From positions 1-14,287 of the forward strand of contig JBGSMD010000033.1 of the NCBI GenBank assembly GCA_041740355.1: a stretch of 14,287 nucleotides of DNA, in the 5' to 3' direction. The number at the start of each line of letters is the position of its first letter. Positions within the stretch are counted from its first letter, which is position 1. A program made the position numbers and the translations under genes. This DNA is from Bdellovibrionota bacterium (GTDB taxonomy: Bacteria; Bdellovibrionota_C; UBA2361; CALJRW01). Of the stretch, positions 1-14,287 are shown one piece after another. A model generated the notes under the pieces. The model saw only the letters and a list, made by a program, of their open reading frames with translations, was not told where the DNA came from and ran no database searches.

Positions 1-87
1 GTAGCAATGCACCTTACTAAAGAAGATGAGCAATTCTTTGATACTTTTAGAAGGCAAATAAAACAAAAAAAGTATTATCATGCTTAA
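1..87 (+). CDS. trbD: TrbD/VirB3 family protein, 3' end (partial, runs off the window start)
   Basis: Frame 1 reads VAMHLTKEDEQFFDTFRRQIKQKKYYHA* (TAA 85-87), resembling the KxDxxFFxxxRR..Y C-terminus of TrbD. It overlaps the trbE ATG by 8 nt (ATGCTTAA), the canonical position. Not in the supplied ORF track. Confidence 0.8.
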   Translation, partial: VAMHLTKEDEQFFDTFRRQIKQKKYYHA

Positions 88-2506
88 CTTAAAACAGTAT
101 AAAGAAAATCCTGATTGCTTATCTGATTTGCTACCATTTGCAGCACTTGTTTCAAATAGTGTTGTATTAAATAAAGACGGATCGTTTCTTTCAACCTTTA
201 AATATAGAGGTCCTGACCTTGATTCTGAAACAGATGGAAGTTTAATTGCAATTAGCGCCAGAATTAATAATATTCTAAAAAGATTAGGCTCAGGATATGC
301 CATTTATGTTGAATCAAAACGAGACGAAGTTAAGTTTTATCCGAAATCATATTTTCCAGACTACATTAGCTATTTAATTGATGAGGAACGAAGAGCCGAA
401 TTTATGTCGGGAGATAACTTTGAGTCTAGTTATTACCTGACTCTTGTTTATTTACCACCAAAGGAAATTTATAATAAAGTAACAAATAAGTTTATTGAAA
501 GTAAGGAAGAGGTCGGGGCTAGAAGTTATCAGCTAATACTTAATAATTTTCAGATTGAAATTGAAAGGATCTTAGGACTTCTTGCAGGTGTTTTTCACGA
601 AGTTGATATTCTAAAAGAGTACGAGTTGCTAACTTATCTTCATTCCACAGTTTCTAGTAAAGATCACAAGGTTAGAGTTCCAGATAATCCAGTATACCTA
701 GATTCAATTTTAAGTGATTCTGATTTACTAACAGGATTTGAGCCAAAGCTTGGAAATAAATTTATCAAGGTAGTTTCAATTAGAGCCTATCCAACCGCAA
801 GTTATCCAGCAATCTTAGATAAATTAAATCATTTAAGTATTAAGTACCGCTTTGTTACAAGATTTATTTCCCTTAATAAGTTAGAAGCAGAAACAGAGCT
901 TCGCCGTTATAAGAAAAAATGGTTTGCAAAAAGAAAGGGCGTATTAACTCTTCTTAAGGAAACAATAACTGGGGAAACAAGTGTCATGGAAGATTCGGAC
1001 GCTGTTAATAAAGCAATTGATGCGGAGAGTGCCTTAGAGGAATTGCAGGACGATCAGGTAAGGTATGGATATTTTACTGCGGTAGTAGTTCTTATGGATG
1101 AAAGCCTAGAAGTAGCAAGTCAGTCAGCAAAGGAAGTGGAAAGAGTTATTAATAGTCTTGGTTTTAGTACTAAAATTGAGCAGGTAAATGCTGTTGATGC
1201 ATTCCTTGGAAGTATTCCCGGGAATACTAGAAATAATGTTAGGAGGCCAATTGTAAATACTCTAAATCTCTCGCATCTCATGCCAGTATCTTCTGTTTTT
1301 GCAGGTGAACTTACCAATCAGCATTTAAAAGCAGAGCCACTATTTTTTGCTAAAACAAGTGGAAGCACTCAATTTCGTTTTAGTCCTCATGTTGGGGATG
1401 TGGGACATACCCTTGTTCTTGGACCAACTGGAGCTGGAAAGTCAGTGCTTCTTAATTTAATGGAGGTACAGTTTTTAAGATATGAAAATGCCCAAGTGTA
1501 TATATTTGATAAGGGAGGAAGTGCCAGAACACTAACCTATGGGGTAGGAGGCGATTACTATGATCTAGGATCTGAAAAATCAGCACTTTCATTTCAACCA
1601 CTTGCCAGAATTAATGAAGATAGGGAACTTCGTTTTGCACATGACTGGATACTAGATATTTTTATCCAAGAAAATATAAAAATTAATCCTGTAATTAAAG
1701 ATAATTTATGGATTGCTCTTAAAAGTTTAAGTACGGCTCCAAAATCTGAGAGAACTATCTTTGGACTAACAGTACTTTTACAGGAGGAACAACTTAGAAA
1801 GGCACTTCTTCCTTATACGATAACTGGGGCGTATGGAAATATTCTTGATCGAGAGGCAGATAATTTAAGTTATGGCTTTTGGCAGTGTTTTGAAATGGAA
1901 ATCCTAATGGATACTCCAAGAATTATTATGCCAGTCCTTTCTTATTTGTTTCATAGATTAAAAGAGAGATTTAAAGGGCAACCAACTCTACTAGTTCTTG
2001 ATGAAGCTTGGATTTTTTTAGATAATCCAGCTTTTCAAAGTAAAATTCGGGAATGGTTAAAGGTTTTAAGAAAATCAAATGTTGCCGTAGTCTTTGCTAC
2101 TCAAAGCCTAGCTGATATTGATGAGAGTGAAATCAGCCAAACTATTAAGGAAGCTTGTCTTACAAAAATATACCTCCCTAATAGTGTTGCTCTTAATTAT
2201 GAAGTAAGTGCCATTTATAAAAAATTTGGGTTAAATGACCAGCAAATTAGAATTCTTGCTACAAGTATTCCCAAGAAGGAGTATTATTATACTTCCCCAC
2301 TTGGAAATAGAATTTTTGAATTGGGGTTAGGGGAGATTGCCCTTACATATCTTGCAGGAACAAGTAAGGAGAAGCAGAACTTAGTTAATGAGATTAAAGA
2401 AAAGTCGATTGAAACCTTAGGGTTTAATATTGAGTATTTAAAATCTCAGGGGTTGGGTGAGGTAAGTGAATATCTTTCAAAACATAAAAATGAAGTAGTC
2501 TTTTAG
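80..2506 (+). CDS. trbE: Conjugal transfer ATPase TrbE (VirB4 family)
   Basis: 808 aa. Typical TrbE N-terminus (LSDLLPFA..VVLNKDGSF..YRGPDLDS), DVGHTLVLGPTGAGKS Walker A, LLVLDEAW Walker B, IREWLKVLRKSN.AVVFATQS. Confidence 0.97.
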   Translation: MLNLKQYKENPDCLSDLLPFAALVSNSVVLNKDGSFLSTFKYRGPDLDSETDGSLIAISARINNILKRLGSGYAIYVESKRDEVKFYPKSYFPDYISYLIDEERRAEFMSGDNFESSYYLTLVYLPPKEIYNKVTNKFIESKEEVGARSYQLILNNFQIEIERILGLLAGVFHEVDILKEYELLTYLHSTVSSKDHKVRVPDNPVYLDSILSDSDLLTGFEPKLGNKFIKVVSIRAYPTASYPAILDKLNHLSIKYRFVTRFISLNKLEAETELRRYKKKWFAKRKGVLTLLKETITGETSVMEDSDAVNKAIDAESALEELQDDQVRYGYFTAVVVLMDESLEVASQSAKEVERVINSLGFSTKIEQVNAVDAFLGSIPGNTRNNVRRPIVNTLNLSHLMPVSSVFAGELTNQHLKAEPLFFAKTSGSTQFRFSPHVGDVGHTLVLGPTGAGKSVLLNLMEVQFLRYENAQVYIFDKGGSARTLTYGVGGDYYDLGSEKSALSFQPLARINEDRELRFAHDWILDIFIQENIKINPVIKDNLWIALKSLSTAPKSERTIFGLTVLLQEEQLRKALLPYTITGAYGNILDREADNLSYGFWQCFEMEILMDTPRIIMPVLSYLFHRLKERFKGQPTLLVLDEAWIFLDNPAFQSKIREWLKVLRKSNVAVVFATQSLADIDESEISQTIKEACLTKIYLPNSVALNYEVSAIYKKFGLNDQQIRILATSIPKKEYYYTSPLGNRIFELGLGEIALTYLAGTSKEKQNLVNEIKEKSIETLGFNIEYLKSQGLGEVSEYLSKHKNEVVF

Positions 2507-2529
2507 GATTTTAGAGAGCCAAATTAAAT

Positions 2530-3357
2530 TTAAGAAATAGCTTTTCTTTTGTCCCATGTTTCTAGCACAAATAGTACAACAGTATGTGCTGCATGGATCG
2601 CAAGTCTAGCATGACGTGGTTCAATATTATAACTTTTATTATCTGATCCATGTGCCGAGCTTGCATGTGTTCTAAGTGATCCAATGCCGTGAACAGTGGA
2701 GATAAGTCCACTAAGAATTGTTTTTAAGTCATTATCTTCTAAAACAGAGGGATCAAAACCCAAATGAGCTCTTACAACTGACCATAAAGGCTGAAGGTCT
2801 TTTTTATTAGGCATTTCCAGGCCTTCTTCTTCAATATAAATTTTACAAAGTGATTCTATTATATTACACGCAGAAGATAAGGCATCCTTTGGACTAACAT
2901 CTAAGGATTTTAGAGCCCTATCAAATTCAGCATTCAAAACTGCGAGATTTCTTTTCTTTATTGATTCGTTGAGGCTAATCGAGGGTGTTGCTAAAGTGCC
3001 CGCGATATTACCCCCGTCAAAATATTTAAGATTAGCTCGAGCAAGCGCATTAGAAATTGCTTTAAAGTGAGTTTGTTTTAATTCAAGTGTGACACCTTCG
3101 GCTGTGTATGACCTTTCAGTTAAATCCTCTTCCATATAGCTCTCAATTAGTTTTCCAAGAATAACTAATGGCATAACAGACTCATCTTTATTGATTCGTT
3201 GTAACCACTCCATTACTTTAACGGGCTTACTACCTGATGGGGGCTCTCCTGGAGCATCAGCATAGGCAAAGAGACGGTCAAGTGTCGCATGACTTTCGCG
3301 CCTTGGAAGTATATCCGCAAGGATCGTTATTATGGGAGCTGGAATAACTTTTCGCAT
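2530..3357 (-). CDS. Abortive-infection family protein with C-terminal Abi_C (HEPN-type) domain; probable anti-phage effector
   Basis: C-terminal half has ALSSACNIIESLCK...LSGL...GIGSLRTHASSAHG (Rx6H HEPN motif)...EPRHARLAIHAAHT, characteristic of Abi_C. The ORF track starts at TTG 3363; ATG 3357 (MRKVIPAP...) is preferred because the TTG lies upstream of the predicted transcription start. Confidence 0.85.
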   Translation of the reverse strand: MRKVIPAPIITILADILPRRESHATLDRLFAYADAPGEPPSGSKPVKVMEWLQRINKDESVMPLVILGKLIESYMEEDLTERSYTAEGVTLELKQTHFKAISNALARANLKYFDGGNIAGTLATPSISLNESIKKRNLAVLNAEFDRALKSLDVSPKDALSSACNIIESLCKIYIEEEGLEMPNKKDLQPLWSVVRAHLGFDPSVLEDNDLKTILSGLISTVHGIGSLRTHASSAHGSDNKSYNIEPRHARLAIHAAHTVVLFVLETWDKRKAIS

Positions 3358-3365
3358 ATTCAAAC

Positions 3366-3394
3366 ATTCTAGGAGGGGATAATTTTCTAGTCAA
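3366..3394 (-). promoter_or_regulatory. Sigma70-type promoter of the Abi_C gene (near-leaderless transcript)
   Basis: Minus strand reads TTGACT-agaaaattatcccctcc(17 nt)-TAGAAT-gtttgaat-ATG. Both hexamers match consensus 5/6, the spacer is ideal, only 8 nt separate the -10 from the ATG, and there is no Shine-Dalgarno. Confidence 0.75.
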
Positions 3395-3407
3395 TTCAGC
3401 TATAGAT

Positions 3408-3437
3408 TTAGCAACTTTAGTTTTCTATTAGCGATTA
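3408..3437 (+). promoter_or_regulatory. Conserved bipartite motif copy 1 (putative alternative-sigma promoter) upstream of trbJ
   Basis: TTAGCAACT-ttagttttctattag(15)-CGATTA, ending 7 nt before the trbJ ATG. The same boxes and spacing occur at 5785-5814 and 13523-13552. Confidence 0.75.
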
Positions 3438-3444
3438 GTAGCAA

Positions 3445-4170
3445 ATGAAAAGACTAGTGCTATTAATAATATTATTTTTGGGTACGGAGAAGCTTTATGC
3501 CCAAGTCCCTGTATTTGATCCAAGTAATTTCTCTCAGAATATCCTACAGGCTATCAGGGCACTTAAAAGTAATATGAATGAAGCCAAAATGATCGCAAAC
3601 GAGGTTGAAATGCTATCTAACGATGTTAAGAATTTAACGAAGCTTCCATATTCAACCGTTCATGAATTAGAGGCTCAGTTCCAAAGCCTATTTTCTGAAA
3701 TGGGTAAAATTCATGGACTAGTCGATGATCTTACTAATCTTCAGAATGAATATGAAAGGCTTTATCCTGAATTTGGTTTAATGGAGGATAAGATTGAGGG
3801 TAAAACAGTTTCTAGTCTTACAAGTGAGTGGTTAGAAGAAAGTAGAAAATCAATGCTAAAGGCTAGTGCAACAGGTGCAAAAGTTTTAGAAGATCTTCCA
3901 AGTTCTCAAAATCGAATCGAGCGACTTGTTACTGATTCCAGTAATGCTGTAGGAATTCTTCAAGCTGCTCAGGCAGGAAATGAAATAAGTGCCATGGTTG
4001 TGGGTAATTTAACCAGTTTGAATGCCCAGCTGGCGACATATAATTCAGCTCATAGTAATTACTTAATGCAAATTAATACTGGAGCTAGTATTTCACAGAA
4101 TAGGATGAAGCATGTGCTTGATGGATTAAAGCCGAATTCGGGTAAGAGGGTGCCCCTTAGTAAGTATTAG
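3445..4170 (+). CDS. trbJ: P-type conjugative transfer protein TrbJ (VirB5-like minor pilin)
   Basis: Signal peptide (MKRLVLLIILFLG..LYA|Q), VFDPSNFSQNILQA motif, coiled-coil body, S.NAVGILQAAQAGNEI motif typical of TrbJ; lies between trbE and trbL. Confidence 0.92.
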   Translation: MKRLVLLIILFLGTEKLYAQVPVFDPSNFSQNILQAIRALKSNMNEAKMIANEVEMLSNDVKNLTKLPYSTVHELEAQFQSLFSEMGKIHGLVDDLTNLQNEYERLYPEFGLMEDKIEGKTVSSLTSEWLEESRKSMLKASATGAKVLEDLPSSQNRIERLVTDSSNAVGILQAAQAGNEISAMVVGNLTSLNAQLATYNSAHSNYLMQINTGASISQNRMKHVLDGLKPNSGKRVPLSKY

Positions 4171-4185
4171 TTAGAGGAGAAATTC

Positions 4186-4269
4186 GTGATTTTGAAAATG
4201 AAGAAAGGAATTTTACCTTTTTTATTAAGTCAGCAAATCAGATCTAATGAGAGCAAACCTCAGACCTAA
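4186..4269 (+). pseudogene. Short ORF with strong RBS at the trbK position; possible truncated remnant of an entry-exclusion or other exported protein gene
   Basis: AGAGGAG (4173-4179), then GTG 4186: MILKMKKGILPFLLSQQIRSNESKPQT*. It begins like a signal peptide (KMKK plus a hydrophobic stretch), turns hydrophilic with no lipobox Cys, and overlaps the protease 3' end. Confidence 0.3.
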
Positions 4270-5614
4270 TTTTATTAGATGAGAAATTAAACCATTGATC
4301 AAAAATATTTTTTGAGAAAATAAAATAACTAGTAATCCCTGAGCCACCACTTCCACCACTCATTTCCTCTACAAGATAAATATCTTTTTTTTGTTCAGCC
4401 TTAATAATATTAAAACAAATTCCGTTTAAAATCTCTGTGGAGTAAAGGGGATAGTCACGTATACTTTTTAAGAAAGCACTTTCTGACTCACAGTTAACTT
4501 TTTCAGAATTGAAATCTAAGAAAGTAGTGCTAATGCAGATTAGATTTTCTGTGCTTAAATGCCCCTTGGACTTTTTCCAATCTACGGTATCAATTGTTCT
4601 AGTACTAATTGAAATTATATCAGCAGATTCGTTTGTATTTGACCAAATTTGAACTATTGCTGGGTGATCAACTAAAGTTACCTCCTCAGAATCTGCACTT
4701 AAAGATTTACCATTAATAGTTAAAGGTAAGCATCCTGTAAAATTTGGTTCATTAAACATGGGAGGTTTGCCATGACTCTGACAATTATCATCATTCAGTG
4801 ATGTTAGGTGCTCACGAAAGATTGTGGCAGCAAACCTTTCACTATTTAAAGAATCGTTCCTGCTACTATCCATTAAGTTGAAAATAAAGTTTGAAACTTC
4901 ATAATCGTCTTTATTTCTTTTTGGAGGAAGTTTGAAATTTTTTGTATTATCATCCATAGGAGCAATTTGCGTATGTTCTTTGGCACCAGAGAGTTGCTCC
5001 CGAGAATCTTTCAGTAATTCTAAAATTACCGAAGTTGGAATTGCAAAATTTAGATTTTGTGAGTTTGTAAGTGATGCAGTAACAACACCAATTACTTTGG
5101 ATTTATTATTTAATAAAGGTCCTCCGCTGTTACCTGGAGAGATAGGTGCCGTAGTTTGAATTATTTTTATATTATCTACATCTCTAATTGAGCTTATAAT
5201 ACCCGATGAAAATGTAGCATCGAGTCCTCTGGGGCTTCCAATTGCGTAAACATCATCCCCTATTTCTAGGTTTTGAATAGATAGTGATAGTGGGGAACAT
5301 TTTTTATAAGGTGATTTTAAGATAACAATATCGTTATATTCATCAATCCCCACAATTTCTTTGATATTTAAGTTTATCCCCTCCGAAGATATAGAAATCT
5401 TTATTTCATTTGCATCCTTTATAACGTGTAAATTAGTGACAATTAGGCAATCTTGAATGAAGAAACCGGAACCTTGCATGCGATCTGTTGATATACTTAC
5501 AACGCTAGGAAGTGCGTCCTTCATAATCTGTTGGGGTGTTTTTGTCGCAACAACTTTAATAACTATGAATATAGTTAAAAATAATAAAAGACCTAGAGAG
5601 ATTTTTTTAAACAC
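4244..5614 (-). CDS. Exported or membrane-anchored trypsin-like (S1C/HtrA-like) serine protease with an unrecognised Cys-containing C-terminal domain
   Basis: GTG start; N-terminal hydrophobic segment; GSGFFI, VTNLHVI (His), NDIVILK (Asp), AIGSPRGL, TTAPISPGNSGGPLLN (Ser), QNLNFAIP. The C-terminal half shows no recognisable PDZ. Confidence 0.9.
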   Translation of the reverse strand: MFKKISLGLLLFLTIFIVIKVVATKTPQQIMKDALPSVVSISTDRMQGSGFFIQDCLIVTNLHVIKDANEIKISISSEGINLNIKEIVGIDEYNDIVILKSPYKKCSPLSLSIQNLEIGDDVYAIGSPRGLDATFSSGIISSIRDVDNIKIIQTTAPISPGNSGGPLLNNKSKVIGVVTASLTNSQNLNFAIPTSVILELLKDSREQLSGAKEHTQIAPMDDNTKNFKLPPKRNKDDYEVSNFIFNLMDSSRNDSLNSERFAATIFREHLTSLNDDNCQSHGKPPMFNEPNFTGCLPLTINGKSLSADSEEVTLVDHPAIVQIWSNTNESADIISISTRTIDTVDWKKSKGHLSTENLICISTTFLDFNSEKVNCESESAFLKSIRDYPLYSTEILNGICFNIIKAEQKKDIYLVEEMSGGSGGSGITSYFIFSKNIFDQWFNFSSNKIRSEVCSH

Positions 5615-5693
5615 AGCAAATATGAATGTTATGTATTGCTTTAAAGCGATTGTAGAAAAGACTAAATTTTAGAGAATTCTTGCTCGATAATTT

Positions 5694-5723
5694 AAGGTAT
5701 CATCGAATAAGTGAATGGGTCAA
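5694..5723 (-). promoter_or_regulatory. Candidate sigma70-type promoter of the protease gene
   Basis: Minus strand TTGACC-cattcacttattcgatga(18)-TACCTT, with a TGn extended -10, about 80 nt upstream of the GTG. The -10 is only a 4/6 match. Confidence 0.4.
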
Positions 5724-5784
5724 GAAGTATTGAGCTATCTCCTTCTATTATAAAGAACAAGAAAAATCTCAGATTAAGAAATTA

Positions 5785-5814
5785 TTAGCAACTAATCAAT
5801 CCGAACTCCGATTA
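5785..5814 (+). promoter_or_regulatory. Conserved bipartite motif copy 2 (putative alternative-sigma promoter) upstream of trbL-F-G-I-lipoprotein-traF
   Basis: TTAGCAACT-aatcaatccgaactc(15)-CGATTA, ending 39 nt before the trbL ATG. Confidence 0.75.
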
Positions 5815-5847
5815 TGTCATTAGAGCCTTCAAGCTTTATGACATGAT
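5811..5847. repeat. Inverted repeat/hairpin between the promoter motif and the trbL start
   Basis: ATTATGTCATTAGAGC-CTTCAA-GCTTTATGACATGAT: about 15-bp stem with one bulge and two G-T pairs. The perfect core is ATGTCAT-N17-ATGACAT. Confidence 0.6.
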
Positions 5848-5853
5848 TATTAA

Positions 5854-7122
5854 ATGACCCCAGATACTGATTCACTTACATTAATTTTAGATACTTTTCT
5901 TGATGCCTTTAGCTTAGGGAGAACTGCCGTTGGAAGATCGGCAAATAGCTTACTTGCTATCCTTGCAACGCTTGAAATCCTAATGGCCGCGATCTGGTGG
6001 ACAATTACTGGTAGTGATGTGGTGGTTAAGTTCTTAAAGAAGGTAATTCTCATTGGGTTCTTTATTTGGATAGTGGAAAGTTGGGATAGTTTAGTAGGAA
6101 GTGTAATTGCAGGTTTTATATATACTGGGGAGACTGCTGGAGCAACCGCAGGCGGTAATATTGTAAGCCTTGAGAATCCATCTGCAATAGTTGATGCTGG
6201 GTTTAATGCAGTGCTCCCCATTTTTGAACATCTTAGATCTTTTGATTCTTATTTTTCAGCAGTTTCAAATCCAATTGATTTAATCATTGCCCTTCTTGCT
6301 TCAGTTTTAATTATTGGTTCCTTTTTTGTCCTAGCCATTCAAGTATTTATTACAAGATTAGAGTTTGGATTAATGGCAACTCTAGGCCTAATTCTTATTC
6401 CTTTTGGAGTGTATAGGCATACTGCCTTTCTAAGTGAAAAAGTTTTTGGGGCGTTAATATCCTTTGGGATAAAGCTCATGATCTTATCATTTATTATTTC
6501 AATTACATTTCCAATTTTAATTCAGTTTAAAGTACCAGCCGATCCCAGTTGGATTGAAATGCTTAATATGGTCTTAGTTTCGATGTCAGTGATGATTTTA
6601 AGCTGGCATGCCCCAAGTGTTGCTACAGGGTTACTTTCTGGAAGCCCAAATTTATCAGCAAGAGATGTAAGTGGGGCAAGTATGACGGCAAGTCACGCGC
6701 TAAGTCAGATTGTTAAACAGTCAGGAAGTATTGGTAGTAGTACTAAGGGTGCAACGGCAGTAGCAAGTAGTGCAACAGTGAGTTCCGTAAGCACAGTAGG
6801 AAAAGTTGCAAGTTTTGGAGCAGGGATGGCAGTTGGAGCTTATAACTCCCCAGGAAGCACCATTAAAAATTTTGGAGAACGAGCTTTTAGTGTCGGTAAA
6901 GAAGTCTTGTCTTCAAGTTTTAGCACAGAAGGTAAGACTTCAAAAAATTCTCTTCGCGAATCATTTAATAGTGGCCGTGAGGTAAGAGTTTCAAAGGGTA
7001 AAATGCAGGGAGAAAATCTAAGAGAGGCAGAAAATACTAGCCCAAAAGTGAAAGAAGGCACTCAAAATGAACAGGCAGTAAAAAGCCTAAAATCTAAGTC
7101 AACAAATACAAGGAGTAAATAA
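5854..7122 (+). CDS. trbL: P-type conjugative transfer protein TrbL (VirB6 family)
   Basis: Multiple TM helices; LAIQVFITRLEF.L....GLILIPFG...TAFLSEK..G....GIKLMIL; P.VATGLLSGSP.L followed by the usual Ser/Ala/Gly-rich tail. Confidence 0.95.
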   Translation: MTPDTDSLTLILDTFLDAFSLGRTAVGRSANSLLAILATLEILMAAIWWTITGSDVVVKFLKKVILIGFFIWIVESWDSLVGSVIAGFIYTGETAGATAGGNIVSLENPSAIVDAGFNAVLPIFEHLRSFDSYFSAVSNPIDLIIALLASVLIIGSFFVLAIQVFITRLEFGLMATLGLILIPFGVYRHTAFLSEKVFGALISFGIKLMILSFIISITFPILIQFKVPADPSWIEMLNMVLVSMSVMILSWHAPSVATGLLSGSPNLSARDVSGASMTASHALSQIVKQSGSIGSSTKGATAVASSATVSSVSTVGKVASFGAGMAVGAYNSPGSTIKNFGERAFSVGKEVLSSSFSTEGKTSKNSLRESFNSGREVRVSKGKMQGENLREAENTSPKVKEGTQNEQAVKSLKSKSTNTRSK

Positions 7123-7124
7123 CT

Positions 7125-7829
7125 ATGAGTAAAGAAATGTTAGCTACTCCCCAATCTAATAAAGTGGAGTGTTTTCCTGAAACTCCGTTTCTTCGAGCCA
7201 AGGAAGAGTGGGATAATCGAATTGGAAGCTCTGTTGTACAAGCTAAAAATTGGAGGCTAGTGGCAATTATTTTAAGTATTAGTTTTCTAATGTTAAGCAC
7301 GGGTAGCATTTATCTTGGAAGCTTAAAAAAGGAAGTTCCAATTATAGTAACACTTGATTTGAGTAGCGGACAAACAAACGTCCTTGGTTTTGCTAAGTCA
7401 ATTAAGTATGAACCTAGAATTCAGGAAATTAAATATTTCCTAAGTAGTTTTATTAATAAGGTAAGAGCAGTACCAATTGATCCAGTCATTATCAAGCAAA
7501 ACTGGAATGATGCCTATGTCTTTTTAAAAAGAGAAGCAGCAATAAAATTAAATAATCAGGTAAATACAGATAAAAATAATCCCTTAAATAATATTGGCAC
7601 TGAAACTGTCATAGTTGAGCCAATATCAGTAAATCAAGTAGCAAACAGCTCCTCTTATCAAGCAAGGTGGAGTGAAACTAGATATAATAAAAATGGCGGA
7701 TTAATTGATTCTTATACAATGAGTGGAGTTTTTAGCTTAGAAATTGAAACTCCAGATAGTGAAGCAGTAATTAGAGTAAATCCACTTGGAATTTTTATTA
7801 CCAATTTTAGTTGGAGTAGGGAGCTATGA
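7125..7829 (+). CDS. trbF: Conjugal transfer protein TrbF (VirB8 family)
   Basis: PETPFLRAKEEWDNRIGS..VQAKNWRL, single TM, VRAVPIDPVIIKQNW..AY.FL, SYQARWSE, NPLGIFITNFSWSREL; AGGAG RBS at 7111-7115. Confidence 0.96.
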   Translation: MSKEMLATPQSNKVECFPETPFLRAKEEWDNRIGSSVVQAKNWRLVAIILSISFLMLSTGSIYLGSLKKEVPIIVTLDLSSGQTNVLGFAKSIKYEPRIQEIKYFLSSFINKVRAVPIDPVIIKQNWNDAYVFLKREAAIKLNNQVNTDKNNPLNNIGTETVIVEPISVNQVANSSSYQARWSETRYNKNGGLIDSYTMSGVFSLEIETPDSEAVIRVNPLGIFITNFSWSREL

Positions 7830-8815
7830 AGATACTGCAAGTTTTGTTTGTTTTAACACTTATACCTCAAATATTAATTGCTGATGAAGGGTTAAGTTCC
7901 AACAACAAGCTTTTAAGTCTTATGGAAGAGAGCGAAGAGGCTATAAAACAAAAAGATAAAGTGACTCACTTAGATCTTTTACCTCAGACTTTAGATAAAA
8001 AAGATACCTATCAGGAAATGGTTAGTCTTTTAGATGAGGTTGAGCAGTTAAAGTCAAAAGTTGTTGCTACTAAACAAAACAGTTTAGCAACTTCTAAGAT
8101 GAAGAGCCAAAAGAAGGAAGGAACTATTACTTATTATAATTACTCAAAAGGAACTATTTACGAGCTGTACGCAGGCGTCGATCGGGTAAGTGATATTGTT
8201 TTACAAGCTGGGGAGAAGTTAACTAACAATCCAATCTCAGGAGATACCGTTAGGTGGAAAGTAGTTAGTACTGAAAGTGGCATGGGGGGAGACCAAGTGA
8301 CTCATATTCTTGTTAAGCCTCTTGAAGAGAAAATTGAAACAAATTTTATAATTACAACAAATCGGAGAACCTATCACATAAAAGCAATCGCAACTGATTG
8401 GTATATGCCTCAAATATCTTGGAATTATCCAGATGATGAGTTTGAGAATATTAAGCAGGAATCAATAAAAAGAAAGGAACATGAAAGTAATCAGGAAGAA
8501 GTTCAGTTTAGTGCGGAAGATTTAGACTTTAATTATGAGACTGACGGAGATGAGTTTTTTACTCCAATTCGTATTTTTAATGATGGAGCTAAAACTTATA
8601 TCCAGATGCCAAAAAATGTTGAGAATCGGGAAGCTCCAGCACTTTTTATAATTGAGGCGGAGAGTGTTCTTCTTACCAATTACCGAGTTAAGGGTAATTA
8701 CTATATTTATGATGGAATCTTTAACACAGCACAGCTTCGAATCGGACAAAAGCAAATTGTAAATATTTATAAAGATGGTTTTGGTCCATCATTATTTAAG
8801 AAGATATTTGGATGA
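7826..8815 (+). CDS. trbG: P-type conjugative transfer protein TrbG (VirB9 family)
   Basis: Signal peptide; SDIVLQAGEKL, GDTVRW, HILVKP...TNFIITTNRRTYH, YMPQISWNYP, LDFNY...P.RIFNDGAKTYIQMP...EAPALF...NYRV. ATGA overlap with trbF. Confidence 0.95.
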   Translation: MKILQVLFVLTLIPQILIADEGLSSNNKLLSLMEESEEAIKQKDKVTHLDLLPQTLDKKDTYQEMVSLLDEVEQLKSKVVATKQNSLATSKMKSQKKEGTITYYNYSKGTIYELYAGVDRVSDIVLQAGEKLTNNPISGDTVRWKVVSTESGMGGDQVTHILVKPLEEKIETNFIITTNRRTYHIKAIATDWYMPQISWNYPDDEFENIKQESIKRKEHESNQEEVQFSAEDLDFNYETDGDEFFTPIRIFNDGAKTYIQMPKNVENREAPALFIIEAESVLLTNYRVKGNYYIYDGIFNTAQLRIGQKQIVNIYKDGFGPSLFKKIFG

Positions 8816-9951
8816 GTGAAAAAAATCTAAAGCTTCGTACTCAAGTACCAAATATAGTTGGGATTCATAAGAGAAATGTAATGGCGTTACTAGGATTAGT
8901 GCTACTTATATTATTAACTATAATTGTCTTTGCTACAGGAAAAGTTAAGCCTAAGACTAATAACTCAAAATCTTTATCTGGAGTGGTTAAACCTGGAGAA
9001 TTAATCAGTTCTCTTCCTGAAAATTATCAATCTCTTACAGATGATAAGCCTAAGAGCTTTAGTAATAAAGAAATTTATCATGATAAGGGACAACGTGGGG
9101 AGGATTTAGAAGCAAAGCTTTTAGAGCAGGAAAGGCTTAGACGAATAAAAAGAGCAATTGAAGCTAGGGAATCAGAGTTAAGTTTTAAGGGAGATAAGAA
9201 AGTTAGTGAAGAGATAAGTTATAGGGGGAGTGATCCTCAAAACTTAACTAATGCTAATCACTTTGGACTCACACAAAGTGAACGTGATACTGATAATCGG
9301 CAAGACGATAAGTATGAATTTTTAAATCGTCCGCGTGAAAGTAAAACTGAGCTTTTAGAGAAGATTAAGGAATCTAAGACTCCATATGAGCTAAAAGCAG
9401 GAAGTCTTATTTCAGGATTACTTCTTACTGGAATTAGTAGCGATCTTCCTGGGCAGATCCTTGGACAAGTAAGTAGAAATATTTATGACTCAGTAAGTGG
9501 TAAATATCTTTTAATTCCAAAAGGAGCACGTGTTCTTGGGGAGTATGATAGCAGGGTAAGCTTTGGACAAGAACGAGTTCTAGTTGCGTGGACAAGACTA
9601 CTATTTCCAAATGGTGACTCAATTAACTTAGGCTCAATGGCTGGTGCTGATTTGCAGGGGCTTTCAGGACTAAAAGATCGAGTTGATAATCATTACGATA
9701 AGTTAATTACTGGAGTTATTTTTGGTTCAGTTTTTGGAGCTGGGGCTCAAATGGCAAGGGGGGAAAATAGAACAGTAGATCCAAGCTTTACGCAGTTAGC
9801 ACTTGAAGGATCGGCACAAAATATTAACCAAGCTGGGCAAACAATCACTAGAAAAAATTTAAATATCCAGCCAACTCTAGAAATTGGGGCAGGGGAGAGG
9901 TTTAATATCTTTGTAAATAAGGATGTAGTTTTACGCCCATATAAGGAATAA
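8812..9951 (+). CDS. trbI: Conjugal transfer protein TrbI (VirB10 family)
   Basis: N-terminal TM; PYELKAGSLI...LLTGISSDLPG...GQVSRNIYDSVSG..LLIPKG.R..G.YDS.V.FGQ.RVLVAW.RL.FPNG, D.VDNH, LNIQPTL, FVNKD.VLRPY. ATGA overlap with trbG. Confidence 0.96.
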   Translation: MSEKNLKLRTQVPNIVGIHKRNVMALLGLVLLILLTIIVFATGKVKPKTNNSKSLSGVVKPGELISSLPENYQSLTDDKPKSFSNKEIYHDKGQRGEDLEAKLLEQERLRRIKRAIEARESELSFKGDKKVSEEISYRGSDPQNLTNANHFGLTQSERDTDNRQDDKYEFLNRPRESKTELLEKIKESKTPYELKAGSLISGLLLTGISSDLPGQILGQVSRNIYDSVSGKYLLIPKGARVLGEYDSRVSFGQERVLVAWTRLLFPNGDSINLGSMAGADLQGLSGLKDRVDNHYDKLITGVIFGSVFGAGAQMARGENRTVDPSFTQLALEGSAQNINQAGQTITRKNLNIQPTLEIGAGERFNIFVNKDVVLRPYKE

Positions 9952-9956
9952 GAGAA

Positions 9957-10304
9957 ATGTTAAAAGTCATAATTACTTCTCTGGTAATACTTACTTTAGG
10001 TTGCAGTACTAAAAACTCTCAACACTTACAGGGCTATAATTTTAATTATAAAATTGATAAGCCTGAAAATAACGATCTAATTCAGATCTTTGATGATGGA
10101 GAAAAAACTTATCTTCATATCTTTGAGTTAAGTAATAAGAAAGAGCCAAGCGTTACTGCATTAAAAATTGGAGAAGATAGCCCTAAAAGAAAATATTACA
10201 AGATAGTTAATAGTTATATTGTCCTTGATGGACTCTTTAAGGAGGTGGACGTTAATTCAAATGGGAAAGTTACCAAGATAAGCCAAGATGAAAATCAGAA
10301 GTAA
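9957..10304 (+). CDS. Lipoprotein consisting of a stand-alone VirB9/TrbG C-terminal-like domain
   Basis: Lipobox LTLG|C at residue 16. YNFNY...QIFDDGEKTYL...YIVLDGLF aligns by eye with LDFNY...RIFNDGAKTYI...YYIYDGIF of TrbG in this window. Confidence 0.75.
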   Translation: MLKVIITSLVILTLGCSTKNSQHLQGYNFNYKIDKPENNDLIQIFDDGEKTYLHIFELSNKKEPSVTALKIGEDSPKRKYYKIVNSYIVLDGLFKEVDVNSNGKVTKISQDENQK

Positions 10305-10827
10305 GCGGGCACTAAGTCTGCTATTCGCTAGTTTACTGGTAATTGGGATTAGCATTACTGCAAATCAGATTTTAGGAAAATTATTTTATATTAATCTTTC
10401 AGCAAGTATGCCACGAGGGATATATAGAATTTCAAGTGGGGAAATTAAGAAAGGGGATACTGTAATTTTTAGCGTACCTCAGGGGTATCAAGAACTAGAC
10501 TTTCTTAAGAATCGTAAAAACCTAATTAAAGAAGTTTATGGGGTAGCGGGGGATAGGTATTGTATTACTGAGAAGGGTATAAGCTTAAATAATAAATTTA
10601 TTGCCTCTAGACTTAAAGGCTTCAAAAAAAAGATTGGTTGTTTTCAAGTTGCACCAGATCATATTTTACCATTAGCACTTTATAAGCCTGACTCTTTTGA
10701 TGGGCGGTATTTTGGGGAGGTGAAAGCGATAAAAGTTAGGAAGTTTAAGATTATCGATAATCTTCAGAACAACTTTGTAGTTACTAACAAAAGCGATGAT
10801 TTTCATCTAAAGTTGAAACGTATTTAG
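10288..10827 (+). CDS. traF: Conjugative transfer signal peptidase TraF (S26 family, pilin maturation/cyclisation)
   Basis: N-terminal TM, INLSASMPRGIY (catalytic Ser region), LIKEVYGVAGD (catalytic Lys region), DSFDGRYFG. Overlaps the upstream gene by 17 nt. Confidence 0.9.
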   Translation: MKIRSKRALSLLFASLLVIGISITANQILGKLFYINLSASMPRGIYRISSGEIKKGDTVIFSVPQGYQELDFLKNRKNLIKEVYGVAGDRYCITEKGISLNNKFIASRLKGFKKKIGCFQVAPDHILPLALYKPDSFDGRYFGEVKAIKVRKFKIIDNLQNNFVVTNKSDDFHLKLKRI

Positions 10828-10844
10828 GTGTCGTCATTGCCTAG

Positions 10845-13280
10845 TTATACTGGTGTCGTAGCTACTGGAGGAACTGGATTTCTAATTGCATCAATAATAA
10901 ATAGGTACCTGTCTATGTGTTGTAATAATTCAGTTAATATAGAAGATGCTTCTTTGTCCGCGTGAAGAAAATTTGCATAATTACAATATTTATAGACCTT
11001 CTCTATTATATCTAGATCTGTGTCTGTCAAACGTTTTATTTTACTATTTGCATCTTTCAATCCAGTAGTGAGATTTGAAAAATTATCATCTTTATTCCAT
11101 AGTAATAAATCATTTTTGATAAAACGCTCAACTGATAAACGCAATAGGTGACCATAAGTTATGGTTGCTTCTTCTACGCTCAATGTTCCCCCAGCCGCTT
11201 TTGTAACTAATGACTGATGACAACCTTTCAATGTCGCATGTAAATCAAAATTTGAATCAACGTATATCAATGAACCTTTAAAAGCGGTAGTGTTTTTTAG
11301 GATTCCAAATTTACTGGGATTAGGACGTTCTTTTTTTACAAGATATTTATAAAATAAGGGATGGTGTGTAAAAACAAAAACTTGAGAATAGATATTTACT
11401 TGTTCAAAAATTGCATCAGAAAGAATTTTTAAATTTGATGCGTCTAAACTTGTAATCGGGTCGTCAAATATTAATATTTTTCCCCCTTTGTCAGCGGTAT
11501 TTTCATTTATGGCAAAAAAGAATGCTAATGAAATTAATTGTCTTTCCCCCTCGGATAATCCAGTTTTAATATTTCTCTCTCTTCCTTTTAAATCAAGTAC
11601 TTTAAAGGAAAATGGAACCTCTAAAGTTGAGCCTGTGACACGATTTGGTTCTAAGGTGAATGAAAGATTAAACCTGTTTAAAAATACCATCATCTTCGAC
11701 AAAATCAACGTCGGAGCTTGTGTAAGAATATATGTTTTTAAATCCTCTTTTGCAGTATTATTGGCTAATTTTAATACTTCCTTTTCATCTTTAAGCTTAT
11801 TCCATTCTTTAATTAGAGAATGATAATTTTTGTCGAAATAATCTTTAAGGTCTGAAGATTTAATGAGTTCTGATTCTTTTTGTTGAATTTCTTGGTCGAT
11901 AGTTGCAACGTCTGAATACCTTGCCTTAAAAGCAATGATCTTGTCTGTGTATTTTTTTAATGATTCAGTTGCGATAACTACTACAATTTTAATATCGTTT
12001 AAATGAGTAGAAATTTCCCTGTAGTCCTTATTAAAATCATAAGCGTTATTGTCTACAGTTTTTAAATTTCCTAGTGCAACTAATAAATTGTCAATGGCTT
12101 TTGAGCAATTTATAATAGTGCTCAATTTCTCTTCTATGGGGTAGCGTTCTCTAAACGCCTCTAAAGTATCTACTTCTGTTGAATTTTCGTCTAAATTCTT
12201 ACCAACATTGTAGTTAGTCCAAAATTCAGATAATACGTTGAAAGAATGATTTATCCTGCTTGGAAGTAAAGAAACAGCTTCTTTTAAGTCAGTTAAGCTA
12301 GATTTTATCAATTCAATCTCTGAAATATATTTGGCTTTCTGTTCTTTGTAGGTTTGATTGAAAAATGCTGAATATGAATTTATTATTTCCTCTTGAGATT
12401 TTAAAGATTGCAAACAAAAGGGACACTCCTCTTTATTTTCTGAGGATTCAATAACTTGAAGACCTTTTTCAATAAATTGCTTATGTCTTGAGATATGTTT
12501 TATTAAATTTTCGCTTGCAATTTTTGATGAGTTATCTTCAATTTTACGAGTAAATATTTCCTGGATTTCTGAAATGGGAACTAGCTCTTTTGTAAGTGTT
12601 ACTTCAACAGGAAGAGTGAATGAAGCAACATTTGATGTTTGATTTTTTCTTACCTTAAGTTGTTCAATATCATCCGAAGAATTTTTATGTTTGCTAATAT
12701 TAGCATCCTTTAATTCAACTAATTCTGCTTCTGACTTTTCGTTATGAGTAACATATATTTCTAGGTCTTTAGGTAAAAAGGTTTGATTTAATTTTATAGT
12801 ATTTGTATCTTCAAAGTCCTTTAACGCCTTTGCCGTATCTATTTCAGATTGCTTTTTCCTGTTTGCTTCTGCATCAAGATCTATTAATAATTTGCCTGAA
12901 TTTTGGCTATGTTTATTTCTTTCATTACTCCTTTCCCCATTTGTATGTACGTTTTCGTCAATAAAAGTTTGGTCGAAAAATAAAATAGAATTTTGCGGCA
13001 ATGAGTTGTCCCAAGCATTTGCAGTATAGTTATATAAGTTATTATCAACTTTTAATTGAATTGAATTTGGCTTGTCACAATTATTACTGAAAGGTCTATT
13101 ATCAGAGAGGTCTTTTAGAATTTCACATATTGAACTCTTACCACTTCCATTCTCACCAAATAGTACATTATATGGACAAAAAGATTTTTCAACACCAGCT
13201 TGATCAATGCAGAATTCTGACCAATTAAAATCAACAAAGGACTTGTACTCTTTAATATGATTTATTTTCTTGATTTTCAT
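10845..13280 (-). CDS. rloC: RloC-like Rad50/SMC-type ABC ATPase (AAA_13) with zinc hook and C-terminal HEPN-type anticodon-nuclease domain
   Basis: Walker A FGENGSGKSS; Q-loop region FFDQTFIDENV; long coiled coil with central CPFC zinc hook; signature LSEGERQLISLAFF; Walker B/D-loop ILIFDDPITSLD; H-loop VFTHH. C-terminal LRLSVERF (Rx3E) plus NFLH matches the PrrC/RloC Arg-Glu-His triad arrangement. Confidence 0.8.
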   Translation of the reverse strand: MKIKKINHIKEYKSFVDFNWSEFCIDQAGVEKSFCPYNVLFGENGSGKSSICEILKDLSDNRPFSNNCDKPNSIQLKVDNNLYNYTANAWDNSLPQNSILFFDQTFIDENVHTNGERSNERNKHSQNSGKLLIDLDAEANRKKQSEIDTAKALKDFEDTNTIKLNQTFLPKDLEIYVTHNEKSEAELVELKDANISKHKNSSDDIEQLKVRKNQTSNVASFTLPVEVTLTKELVPISEIQEIFTRKIEDNSSKIASENLIKHISRHKQFIEKGLQVIESSENKEECPFCLQSLKSQEEIINSYSAFFNQTYKEQKAKYISEIELIKSSLTDLKEAVSLLPSRINHSFNVLSEFWTNYNVGKNLDENSTEVDTLEAFRERYPIEEKLSTIINCSKAIDNLLVALGNLKTVDNNAYDFNKDYREISTHLNDIKIVVVIATESLKKYTDKIIAFKARYSDVATIDQEIQQKESELIKSSDLKDYFDKNYHSLIKEWNKLKDEKEVLKLANNTAKEDLKTYILTQAPTLILSKMMVFLNRFNLSFTLEPNRVTGSTLEVPFSFKVLDLKGRERNIKTGLSEGERQLISLAFFFAINENTADKGGKILIFDDPITSLDASNLKILSDAIFEQVNIYSQVFVFTHHPLFYKYLVKKERPNPSKFGILKNTTAFKGSLIYVDSNFDLHATLKGCHQSLVTKAAGGTLSVEEATITYGHLLRLSVERFIKNDLLLWNKDDNFSNLTTGLKDANSKIKRLTDTDLDIIEKVYKYCNYANFLHADKEASSILTELLQHIDRYLFIIDAIRNPVPPVATTPV

Positions 13281-13313
13281 TTCTTAATTGTCTTCGGAAT
13301 CTTTTTTATAATA

Positions 13314-13346
13314 AGGTTTATCCAAAGATTGGATTTTATAAAACCT
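13314..13346. repeat. Nested inverted repeat upstream of the rloC-like gene
   Basis: AGGTTT-ATCCAA-aga-TTGGAT-tttata-AAACCT: perfect 6-bp inner arms and 6-bp outer arms. Confidence 0.4.
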
Positions 13347-13357
13347 CTACAACCGAA

Positions 13358-13429
13358 CACTTTTTAGAGTTGGATTGTTTTACTGATAAGCCAGTAGAAA
13401 TAGTCAAAATCTCAACTGCTAAAGGCGTG
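13358..13429 (+). other. Long imperfect hairpin (about 72 nt) in the divergent intergenic region
   Basis: CAC-TTTTTAGAGTTG-GATTGTTTTACTG-ataagc-CAGTAGAAATAGTC-aaaatct-CAACTGCTAAAGG-c-GTG. The arms pair along their length with single-base bulges and several G-T pairs. Confidence 0.5.
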
Positions 13430-13522
13430 ATGATCTGAATTAATTAGTAAGATATGGGGAAAATCTAAGAAAAGCAATATAGAATAGCTAGCATAAGCAG
13501 TAATAAAATTATTAGTAAAATA

Positions 13523-13552
13523 TAAGCAACTTCCCAACTGTTCTCACGATTA
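13523..13552 (+). promoter_or_regulatory. Conserved bipartite motif copy 3 (putative alternative-sigma promoter) upstream of the 114-aa ORF
   Basis: TAAGCAACT-tcccaactgttctca(15)-CGATTA, ending 29 nt before GTG 13582. Confidence 0.75.
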
Positions 13553-13581
13553 GGTAACAAATATTTTTTTGTGAAAGAAGC

Positions 13582-13926
13582 GTGAAGGAAAAGAAATTAG
13601 CACCAATATTTGAATACGATCCCCCTGATAACTTTTTGTGTACTCCAGAAGAGCTCTTATTAATTGCCGTTATTAAGAATGCAATCGCAGATTATCTTTT
13701 TATCTATGAAAATATCTATTTTACTGATTCCGAGTTAAGAGAAGGTAACAGGGCAAATAAATGGCTTTTTGAAGAGCGAGAAGATGACAAAGAGTGGCCA
13801 TGGACGTTTAACTGGATCTGTTGCCAGTTAGAAGAGCTAAATCATGTAACAAATATTAAAAGTATAATTTTAAGTCATGTTGCAATGAGAAGAGATGAAA
13901 TCATTGAACATCAATTAGCAGCTTAA
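13582..13926 (+). CDS. Uncharacterised small acidic helical protein
   Basis: GTG start, 114 aa, preceded by motif copy 3. The pattern PEExLLxAVIxxAIxDY...A.KWLF...WPWTF.WIC..L looks like a conserved hypothetical family. Confidence 0.75.
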   Translation: MKEKKLAPIFEYDPPDNFLCTPEELLLIAVIKNAIADYLFIYENIYFTDSELREGNRANKWLFEEREDDKEWPWTFNWICCQLEELNHVTNIKSIILSHVAMRRDEIIEHQLAA

Positions 13927-13940
13927 ATCTCGTTTACGTT

Positions 13941-14287
13941 ATGTTTATGAAAGAAATACTAATTTATTTAACAAGCTTTGTATTATTTATCAGTGCTGTA
14001 AATGCTGAGCCTCAATTTGTAAGAAGTAGTTTGCTTGGGAATTCTAGTAAAATTACTTTAACAGCAACTAATCCAACTGCTATTTTCTGGGAACTCTCTA
14101 AGGGCAATCAAAGTATTCCACTAAGAATTACAGTAAACGGAGGTAAAGAATTTAACCTAGAAGCTAAAGCACAAAGATTTTCAGGTAATACTAAGAAAGC
14201 ATTAATTAAAAAGACTGGATGGTACAAACTAAAACTTAAAAATCAGAATGAACATGTAAATCAATTAGGAAACTGTGGTGAAATTAA
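13941..14287 (+). CDS. Secreted hypothetical protein, 5' part (runs off the window end)
   Basis: Open from ATG 13941 (or 13947) to the end: MFMKEILIYLTSFVLFISAVNA|EPQFVRSSLLGNSSKITLTATNPTAIFWELSKGNQSIPLRITVNGGKEFNLEAKAQ... It has a Sec-type signal peptide ending VNA and starts 14 nt after the previous stop. Not in the ORF track. Confidence 0.75.
   Translation, partial: MFMKEILIYLTSFVLFISAVNAEPQFVRSSLLGNSSKITLTATNPTAIFWELSKGNQSIPLRITVNGGKEFNLEAKAQRFSGNTKKALIKKTGWYKLKLKNQNEHVNQLGNCGEI

Follow-up and report, generated by a model that had tools for sequence, protein, structure and literature searches.

Why should the transfer genes of a conjugative element be interrupted three times, each time by a single gene on the opposite strand and each time with the same short motif in front of the next genes? 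This question is raised by a contig of 14,287 bases (C33; the whole of this DNA is called the window here), which carries the mating-pair-formation region of a P-type (trb) conjugative plasmid or integrative and conjugative element (ICE) rich in defence genes. The window is one complete contig of a 3.27-Mb metagenome-assembled genome (MAG; 36% G+C, 97% complete, 0.4% contaminated) from an uncultured, Bdellovibrionota-like host, and the closest trb loci come from Bdellovibrionota, Bdellovibrionales and Oligoflexia MAGs. Its backbone genes run in the order trbD'-trbE, trbJ, trbL-trbF-trbG-trbI-virB9-like-traF and orf114, with one antisense gene at each of the three joints between these blocks, convergent spacers of 23, 73 and 17 nucleotides (nt) and divergent gaps of 81, 239 and 301 nt (Table 1). 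An initial reading made without database searches (the sequence-only reading) had described this as one unit occurring three times, a convergent cargo gene followed by a divergent gap with a shared motif. Both parts of that description hold: the gene calls were confirmed, and the bipartite motif AGCAACT-N15-CGATTA is present on the + strand in all three gaps.

The explanation that we favour, and consider to be probably correct, is that the joints are exchangeable cargo slots which are specific to one lineage and lie upstream of block promoters. The transfer genes would be split into the blocks trbC-D-E, trbJ, trbL-to-traF and orf114-orf355-trbB, each preceded by a promoter-like sequence, G[CA]AACT-N15-CGATTA, that appears to be used throughout the order of the host. 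With a start signal of its own for each block, DNA inserted after a block has stopped and before the next signal would leave the downstream genes unsilenced, and the joints could thereby become exchange points at which related elements trade accessory genes by recombination. The occupants in the window would be an RNase of the AbiJ-like HEPN type, an exported protease that has an orphan domain, and an RloC anticodon nuclease, all three on the opposite strand. This explanation draws on the layout, on the statistics of the motif and on the differing contents at the same breakpoints in close relatives, and it would attribute the tolerance of the joints for cargo to the motif itself.

Chance does not account for the motif. 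As exact words go, the three divergent gaps share just the 7-mer AGCAACT, which alone is insignificant (330 of 2000 shuffles share a 7-mer), and a verdict of chance was overturned when alignment with a second trb copy from the same MAG (the sister copy) brought out a second box at fixed spacing. Exact copies with a spacing of 15 number seven in the whole MAG, compared with 0, 0, 1, 0 and 0 at spacings of 10 to 14 and 0, 1, 1, 0, 0 and 1 at spacings of 16 to 21. Of these copies, five are located on trb contigs, where they are directed into trb genes, namely trbJ, trbL, the open reading frame (ORF) starting at 13582, trbC and the trbJ of the sister copy. The copy in front of trbC belongs to a fourth unit of the same kind on the adjoining contig C40, in which the motif comes after an antisense DUF6908 gene. 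In the sister copy, orf114 is preceded at the same place by a copy with one mismatch (AACAACT-N15-CGATTA), without cargo there. When relaxed to G[AC]AAC[CT]-N15-CGATTA, the motif has ten matches in the MAG, seven of which are found on the trb-element contigs (58.5 kb, 1.8% of the MAG); all seven point into trb or rep genes, and repA is marked in both copies. An enrichment of ATTAG-type words in the gaps was set aside as a post-hoc pattern that is subsumed by the CGATTA box. Elsewhere in the MAG, a stretch of contig C51 (46540-47884) contains an exact motif copy before two small ORFs, similar by eye to a ribbon-helix-helix antitoxin and a MazF/PemK-type toxin, and a copy with one mismatch before an ORF that by eye resembles a helix-turn-helix antitoxin.

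At the same three breakpoints, different DNA is found in the nearest relatives. The sister copy is incompletely assembled on two contigs (C23, 1-3981, and C58, 1-6115; loci L183 and L184) and is 86-92% (~90%) identical to the window in DNA. Between trbE and trbJ it has 1440 unrelated bases with a co-directional gene for 323 amino acids (aa; L183 1057-2028, +), the product of which is a predicted membrane protein without homolog or family match. A co-directional DUF4124 signal-peptide gene follows trbJ, and after traF a mere 50 nt replace the 2790-nt rloC segment of the window; 10725 is likewise linked to 13641 in a contig from run X1. At each joint, homology starts again 2-9 nt ahead of the motif, and the sister copy keeps the motif before trbJ and before orf114. 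A ~93% identical variant is present in run X4 from another study, in which contigs bridge trbE to the Abi_C gene and the Abi_C gene to trbJ, so that the occupant of this joint is shared, and in a further contig 1815 other letters separate 4154 from 5838. The rloC region has next to no cover in X4, which makes this run uninformative on rloC. Runs X2 and X3 yielded fragments, whose loose ends at 4323 and 10602 may stem from additional variants. In these nearest relatives, slot contents thus vary while the motif is kept, as had been anticipated, with other sequence in the sister copy and, at the trbJ/trbL joint, in X4. The antisense orientation does not hold throughout, as both occupants in the sister copy are co-directional.

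That the layout arose as a chimera in the assembly of the MAG is extremely improbable. Two ~90% identical copies are present in the MAG and contigs break in this region, but the contigs that bridge both junctions of the Abi_C gene in X4 stem from an independent study, contigs from X1, which may be the source sample, span each of the six gene junctions, and the flanking genes are all intact.

Two somewhat more distant loci show where the motif and the cargo go together. In the closest outgroup (L023, TrbE 63% identical), five + strand copies of GAAACT-N15-CGATTA precede trbC (two copies), ssb, the gene after traF and the next gene, and no copy is found inside the tight trbE-J-L run. The two inner copies therefore go with the inner cargo and are specific to the lineage that carries it. 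A Bdellovibrionales relative (L031, 55%; 17506-20909) repeats the unit after trbI, where a convergent gene for a PtuA-like ATPase is followed by an exact motif copy and the next + strand gene, which encodes 204 aa and is itself followed by an antisense gene for 416 aa. The PtuA-like (Septu-type) ATPase is solitary, and no PtuB gene was seen beside it.

For a wider comparison, 160 related loci among the matches listed were used (80 on genome contigs and 80 on metagenome contigs; TrbE 35-63% identical). The best TrbE identities in the alignment-based scans were 63% and 62%, with none higher, and neither a megablast search of the window against plasmids nor a single-protein TrbE scan of genome contigs gave a match. 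The premise that the trb core is normally uninterrupted was borne out: an antisense insert at the trbE/trbJ joint occurs in 0 of the 120 loci having both genes, and a gap of >600 nt at the trbJ/trbL joint in 0 of 103 loci, a threshold that would miss a small trbK-like gene. Co-directional ORFs are present at 13 of the 120 trbE/trbJ joints and one further joint is rearranged. These ORFs occupy ~0.9 kb and are mostly from Planctomycetota, and the loci concerned (L034-L048 and L050) include Methylococcaceae, Terracidiphilus and Denitrobaculum; 255-324-aa ORFs are found in 11 cases, a fused 491-aa frame in one (L045) and two small ORFs in one (L050). The ~0.9-kb gap was rejected as a candidate for antisense cargo because it holds these co-directional ORFs. 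In the sole pair that was examined, the product of the extra ORF in L036 is a paralog of TrbJ and shares 39% identity with the TrbJ encoded next to it (E 4e-51). In 12 annotated Bdellovibrionota relatives, by contrast, cargo is found in the region following trbI, with contents that comprise AbiE, an RmrA-like gene, a PtuA-like ATPase, a type I restriction enzyme, HigBA or an RND pump. The inner slots are confined to the lineage of the window and are not a trait of the family.

Three unrelated, accidental insertions in one plasmid lineage, at joints that are nothing special and with motifs that pre-existed or are incidental, would fit the absence of antisense or gene-sized inner inserts from these 160 loci, the generality of the motif in the host order and the lack of repeats or recombinase genes flanking any of the three inserts. 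We nevertheless consider this explanation unlikely, given that the same three breakpoints hold other contents in the sister copy and in X4, that the variable DNA stops just short of the motif each time (by the 2-9 nt mentioned above), and that the motif is absent from the tight trbE/trbJ and trbJ/trbL joints of L023 and its inner copies are specific to the lineage with inner cargo.

This leads to the question of what the motif is. The form G[AC]AACTT-N14-CGATTA was found in 77 of 91 genomes from the host order; a single genome has as many as 28 copies, compared with 0-1 for a reversed control pattern. Among sites sampled from two other genomes, 13 of 21 are intergenic-like (no long open frame) versus 254 of 2000 random positions, and most of them are followed within 17-68 nt by a ribosome-binding site and a start codon (ATG). 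At the sampled loci L203-L222, a conserved sTAGTCGG-like extension often follows by eye. Between the two copies in the MAG, the boxes of the motif are conserved and the spacer has diverged. The motif thus appears to represent an order-wide, promoter-like class, and is neither private to the element nor a mark of slots. We take it to be a promoter because it is order-wide, mostly intergenic and followed by a ribosome-binding site and ATG, because its boxes are kept while the spacer diverges, and because its -10-like box resembles that of sigma-28 promoters; most plausibly, it would be read by an alternative sigma factor of the host. In the available passages of PMC12784957, sigma-28 (FliA/WhiG) promoters are given with TCTAAAG as -35 and GCCGATAA as -10 element. 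The -10-like CGATTA of the motif matches CGATAA and the distance between the boxes is identical, with 21 nt from the start of TAAAG to CGAT, whereas the -35-like box of the motif is G[CA]AACT and not TAAAG. The MAG encodes a clear FliA/WhiG-family sigma factor (C16 20838-21596; 244.8 bits, cut-off 189.6), and no flagellin gene was found in this 97% complete MAG. Sigma genes are absent from the element contigs, and all 17 sigma-family matches in the MAG lie elsewhere. Sigma-70-like sites show no excess across the whole window, so that the match facing the Abi_C gene (Table 1) is weak. The proposal that internal promoters create tolerant slots can accordingly be retained in part: a promoter-like motif does precede each block, but the motif is found across the order and the inner slots in one lineage only.

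Alternatively, the motif could serve a regulator of transfer as its operator, or cassettes could be inserted at it by recombination. The abutment of variable DNA on the motif and the concentration of seven of the ten relaxed matches on 1.8% of the MAG would agree with either function. Both are nonetheless very unlikely, since the motif has no dyad symmetry and its occurrences in the 77 genomes are mostly single chromosomal sites upstream of ORFs; its two boxes stand at a fixed spacing with a sigma-28-like -10, and the ATG of trbJ sits where a leaderless transcript would start.

Two of the three occupants of the proposed slots resemble known abortive-infection nucleases. The product of the gene between trbE and trbJ has an Abi_C match of 68.9 bits (cut-off 24), which contains an R-x6-H motif (RTHASSAH) in agreement with the Rx4-6H pattern of HEPN domains, and is likely an abortive-infection RNase. 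Members of the AbiJ family, such as AbiJ of Lactococcus lactis, are HEPN abortive-infection proteins according to the passages of PMC3710099 that describe them. Like AbiJ, the protein from the window combines a C-terminal Abi_C/HEPN domain carrying R-x6-H with a variable N-terminal domain and is encoded by a solitary gene; it differs in that its N-terminal half has no Pfam match.

The gene after traF encodes an RloC-like protein with a Rad50-like ABC ATPase, a CxxC zinc hook and a putative C-terminal nuclease domain. The ABC motifs GENGSGKS, LSEGERQ, DDPITSLD and THH are invariant in 12 aligned homologs. Equally invariant are C286-P-F-C289, which is situated after Walker A (42-49) and before the signature motif (575-581), and R714-x3-E718 and H773. 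Homologs of this protein are annotated as 'wobble nucleotide-excising tRNase' in the source records. As far as the consulted parts of PMC2610378 describe RloC from Geobacillus kaustophilus, the likeness covers the ABC motifs, a CxxC hook within a long insert, the residues of an Arg-x3-Glu...His triad and a gene that is usually unlinked to a type I restriction-modification locus. In contrast, the Glu-to-His spacing of 54 is just outside the range in the published signature (Arg-x3-Glu-x36-52-His), and the gene in the window is located where a transfer block ends on a conjugative element. For residues 560-811, homologs that are 79-85% identical were found in unrelated taxa, e.g. Lacibacter, whereas the best outside relative of the backbone reaches 63%. 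This suggests a recent transfer of rloC, and the gene looks recently acquired. Both nucleases would act in abortive infection.

The occupant of the trbJ/trbL joint is an exported trypsin/HtrA-like serine protease with a hydrophobic N-terminus, a catalytic domain at residues ~35-205 and an orphan C-terminal domain (C-domain) at residues 215-456 (window 4247-4972). Its translation contains TNLHV, DIVILK and GNSGGP, which we take to be the His-Asp-Ser triad. No PDZ domain was matched in Pfam, and we therefore describe the protein as a protease with an HtrA-like catalytic domain and not as a member of the HtrA/DegP family. For the 242 residues of the C-domain, no meaningful homolog was found among 5.8 billion indexed proteins or 1.84 billion representatives, and the Protein Atlas gave no usable match; the sole non-self match covers a 29-residue stretch (203-231), by eye a low-complexity Gly/Ser run.

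The position of the protease also suggests a possible role in entry exclusion. In the available parts of PMC8923210 and PMC2848598, the exclusion gene of IncP plasmids is placed between trbJ and trbL and that of IncN plasmids between virB5- and virB6-like genes, and it is described as the non-essential, poorly conserved gene of the operon. The trbJ/trbL joint might hence be an entry-exclusion position, at which fast-changing exported occupants act as exclusion or surface-compatibility factors that define exclusion groups, and not as anti-phage cargo. Both readable occupants of this joint, the protease and the DUF4124 protein, have hydrophobic N-termini, and the lack of homologs of the protease C-domain would suit such a function. 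However, the occupant is a 456-aa antisense gene product without lipobox, as opposed to the TrbK lipoproteins of 69-151 aa, and entry exclusion would leave the other two joints unexplained. We regard it as a rather unlikely account of the locus.

A further possibility concerns the way in which cargo and transfer genes are oriented to each other. The operon of this type IV secretion system might have been rebuilt as self-starting modules that share one promoter of the alternative-sigma type, and with the nuclease genes convergent to the transfer blocks, transfer and defence expression might antagonise each other by transcriptional collision. Such collision is conceivable because the convergent spacers of 17-73 nt have no clear terminator: a terminator scan found none in any of the three, the folding z-scores are 0.66, -0.58 and 0.22, and a weak hairpin followed by a T-run after trbJ is the only terminator-like feature. 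If modules and collision were real, the cell would either mate or stand guard, and the protease C-domain and the 323-aa protein of the sister copy would be new defence or exclusion factors. We consider this quite unlikely. A link of the cargo to pilus-specific phages, which had been suggested at the outset, is speculation, as is any role of the antisense orientation.

Several results weigh against exchangeable cargo slots upstream of block promoters, even though we favour this explanation. With inner inserts at 0 of 120 and 0 of 103 joints in the wider comparison, the evidence for variability comes from two or three near relatives. Of these, the sister copy may represent either another plasmid of the same cell or a strain that was binned together with the host, and the 1815 letters in X4 may belong either to another occupant or to a protease allele that has diverged strongly. 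Cargo of the defence type was expected, and two of the three occupants in the window indeed belong to defence families, but the protease matches PADLOC models via its protease domain only and neither of the two occupants in the sister copy matches PADLOC at all. The promoter role of the motif is deduced from sequence. A divergent group-3 sigma gene on contig C20, preceded by a motif-like GCAACTTT-N11-TTCGATAA, was considered as the gene for the cognate factor and no link was drawn; its homologs (28-38% identical) are present in 5 of 5 genomes, whether or not these have the motif at the trb locus. A motif copy upstream of recA was dismissed as promoter evidence, as in 5 of 5 genomes it falls inside the coding region of lexA, where the LexA protein sequence probably maintains it.

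Apart from the joints, the window has the composition of a P-type (trb, MPF-T) system, with the TrbE ATPase and with TrbJ, TrbL, TrbF, TrbG, TrbI and TraF in trb order. TrbF (NF010446) and TrbG (TIGR02775) exceed the NCBIfam cut-offs; TrbL (TIGR02783, 120.4 versus 128.85) and TraF (TIGR02771, 56.4 versus 100.25) are below these but above the Pfam cut-offs, and TrbI scores 202 bits in Pfam. The end of C40 overlaps exactly with the first 141 nt of the window. This contig supplies the remainder of trbD (C40 55-312, Pfam VirB3) and the pilin gene trbC, and in addition to the antisense DUF6908 gene it carries several element-specific genes, repA and parA. It also contains a two-gene defence module (L185, 11259-18154, +), in which an HKD(PLD)-Snf2 helicase (1061 aa) is encoded beside a type IIG restriction-methylase (1235 aa), matching PADLOC C3a139 'HKD+Snf2' and REase_MTase_IIG. 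Since repA, parA, trb and defence genes thus occur together on the adjoining contig, we call the element a conjugative plasmid or ICE. The VirB11-type ATPase TrbB was seen only in the sister copy, where trbB (T2SSE/VirB11-type ATPase) follows orf114-orf355 on C58. The last 34 codons of traF (window 10726-10827) lie in the inserted rloC segment, and TraF has 179 aa in the window, compared with 171 aa in L023 and 162 aa in the sister copy; when the rloC segment was inserted, the tail of traF was rewritten outside the S26 peptidase domain. An open-ended 101-aa ORF antisense to the trbD/trbE junction (window 1-303, -) gives tblastn matches in relatives and was read as a shadow of the coding strand. 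No RNA genes were found in the window with Rfam or a tRNA scan.

Table 1. Genes, variable segments and motif copies at the trb locus; positions refer to the window (C33) unless another contig is named.
Feature	Position	Strand	Basis or remark
trbD 3' end (VirB3-like)	1-87	+	Read from sequence; overlaps trbE start by 8 nt
trbE (VirB4 ATPase)	80-2506	+	NCBIfam NF010447 TrbE, 1108.7 bits, cut-off 1020
Variable segment 1: last 13 codons of trbE, spacer, Abi_C gene, most of gap	2468-3407		blastn breakpoints C33 2467/3408, C23 858/2299
AbiJ-like HEPN protein (Abi_C domain)	2530-3363	-	Pfam Abi_C 4e-19, residues 193-268; PADLOC AbiJ 1.1e-14
Sigma-70-like promoter match TTGACT-17-TAGAAT facing Abi_C gene	3366-3394	-	Consensus scan, 10/12 positions; weak
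Motif copy 1	3410-3437	+	Ends 7 nt before trbJ ATG
trbJ (VirB5-like)	3445-4170	+	TIGR02780 TrbJ_Ti, 124.6 bits, cut-off 100.55
Variable segment 2: trbJ tail, protease gene, most of gap	4153-5784		Sister copy diverges from 4153; X1 contig rejoins at 5785
Exported trypsin/HtrA-like serine protease, 456 aa	4244-5614	-	Pfam Trypsin_2 1.2e-23; PDB HtrA/DegP matches
Motif copy 2	5787-5814	+	39 nt before trbL ATG
trbL, trbF, trbG, trbI, small VirB9-like ORF (9957-10304), traF	5854-10827	+	Tightly packed or overlapping
trbL	5854-7122	+	
Variable segment 3: 34-codon traF tail, rloC, 235 nt of gap	10726-13515		blastn breakpoints C33 10725/13516, C58 2561/2612
RloC-type anticodon nuclease (putative)	10845-13280	-	Pfam AAA_13 4.1e-30; PADLOC PDC-S06 3e-29
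Motif copy 3	13525-13552	+	29 nt before GTG of ORF 13582
orf114 (ORF 13582-13926, GTG start) and start of orf355	13582-14287	+	Conserved backbone genes; 89% and 86% identical copies on C58
Motif copy on C40	C40 672-699		47 nt before trbC
Motif copy on C23	C23 2301		Before sister-copy trbJ

That conjugative elements carry defence genes and have fixed hotspots in their backbones is already established. SXT/R391 elements combine a syntenic transfer backbone with variable DNA at the fixed intergenic points HS1-HS5, and the hotspot contents include phage-defence genes, as stated in the parts of PMC2791158 and bioRxiv 10.1101/2020.12.16.423150 that deal with them. The joints of the window are hotspots in the same sense, with conserved boundaries and with contents that differ between otherwise near-identical elements, namely from the sister copy at three joints and from X4 at one, though in few elements: two or three were compared here versus 13 for SXT/R391. 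The SXT/R391 backbone is F-type and from Gammaproteobacteria, whereas the window has a P-type backbone with single-gene slots inside the trbE-trbJ-trbL core, and, unlike the SXT/R391 hotspots, each of its slots is followed by a copy of one promoter-like motif. New here are hotspots inside this core, which is uninterrupted in the related loci examined, and their coincidence with added promoter-like copies. The phrase "between trbE and trbJ" was not found in any paper, and mentions of "between trbJ and trbL", as far as they were covered, concern entry exclusion or a strain difference. If the joints are cargo slots, a simple rule is suggested, by which a transfer operon accepts cargo just upstream of a block's own promoter; the analysis further provides an uncultured bacterial order with a promoter class that can be tested, and points to two orphan proteins whose slots are otherwise filled by genes of the abortive-infection or exclusion type. 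The closest precedent for a single joint is trbK/eex of IncP and IncN plasmids (PMC8923210, PMC2848598, in the parts available), which shares with the protease gene the same trbJ/trbL junction and an exported, poorly conserved product that is dispensable although the rest of the operon is essential. TrbK is a small lipoprotein of 69-151 aa encoded co-directionally, whereas the gene in the window encodes a serine protease of 456 aa in antisense orientation.

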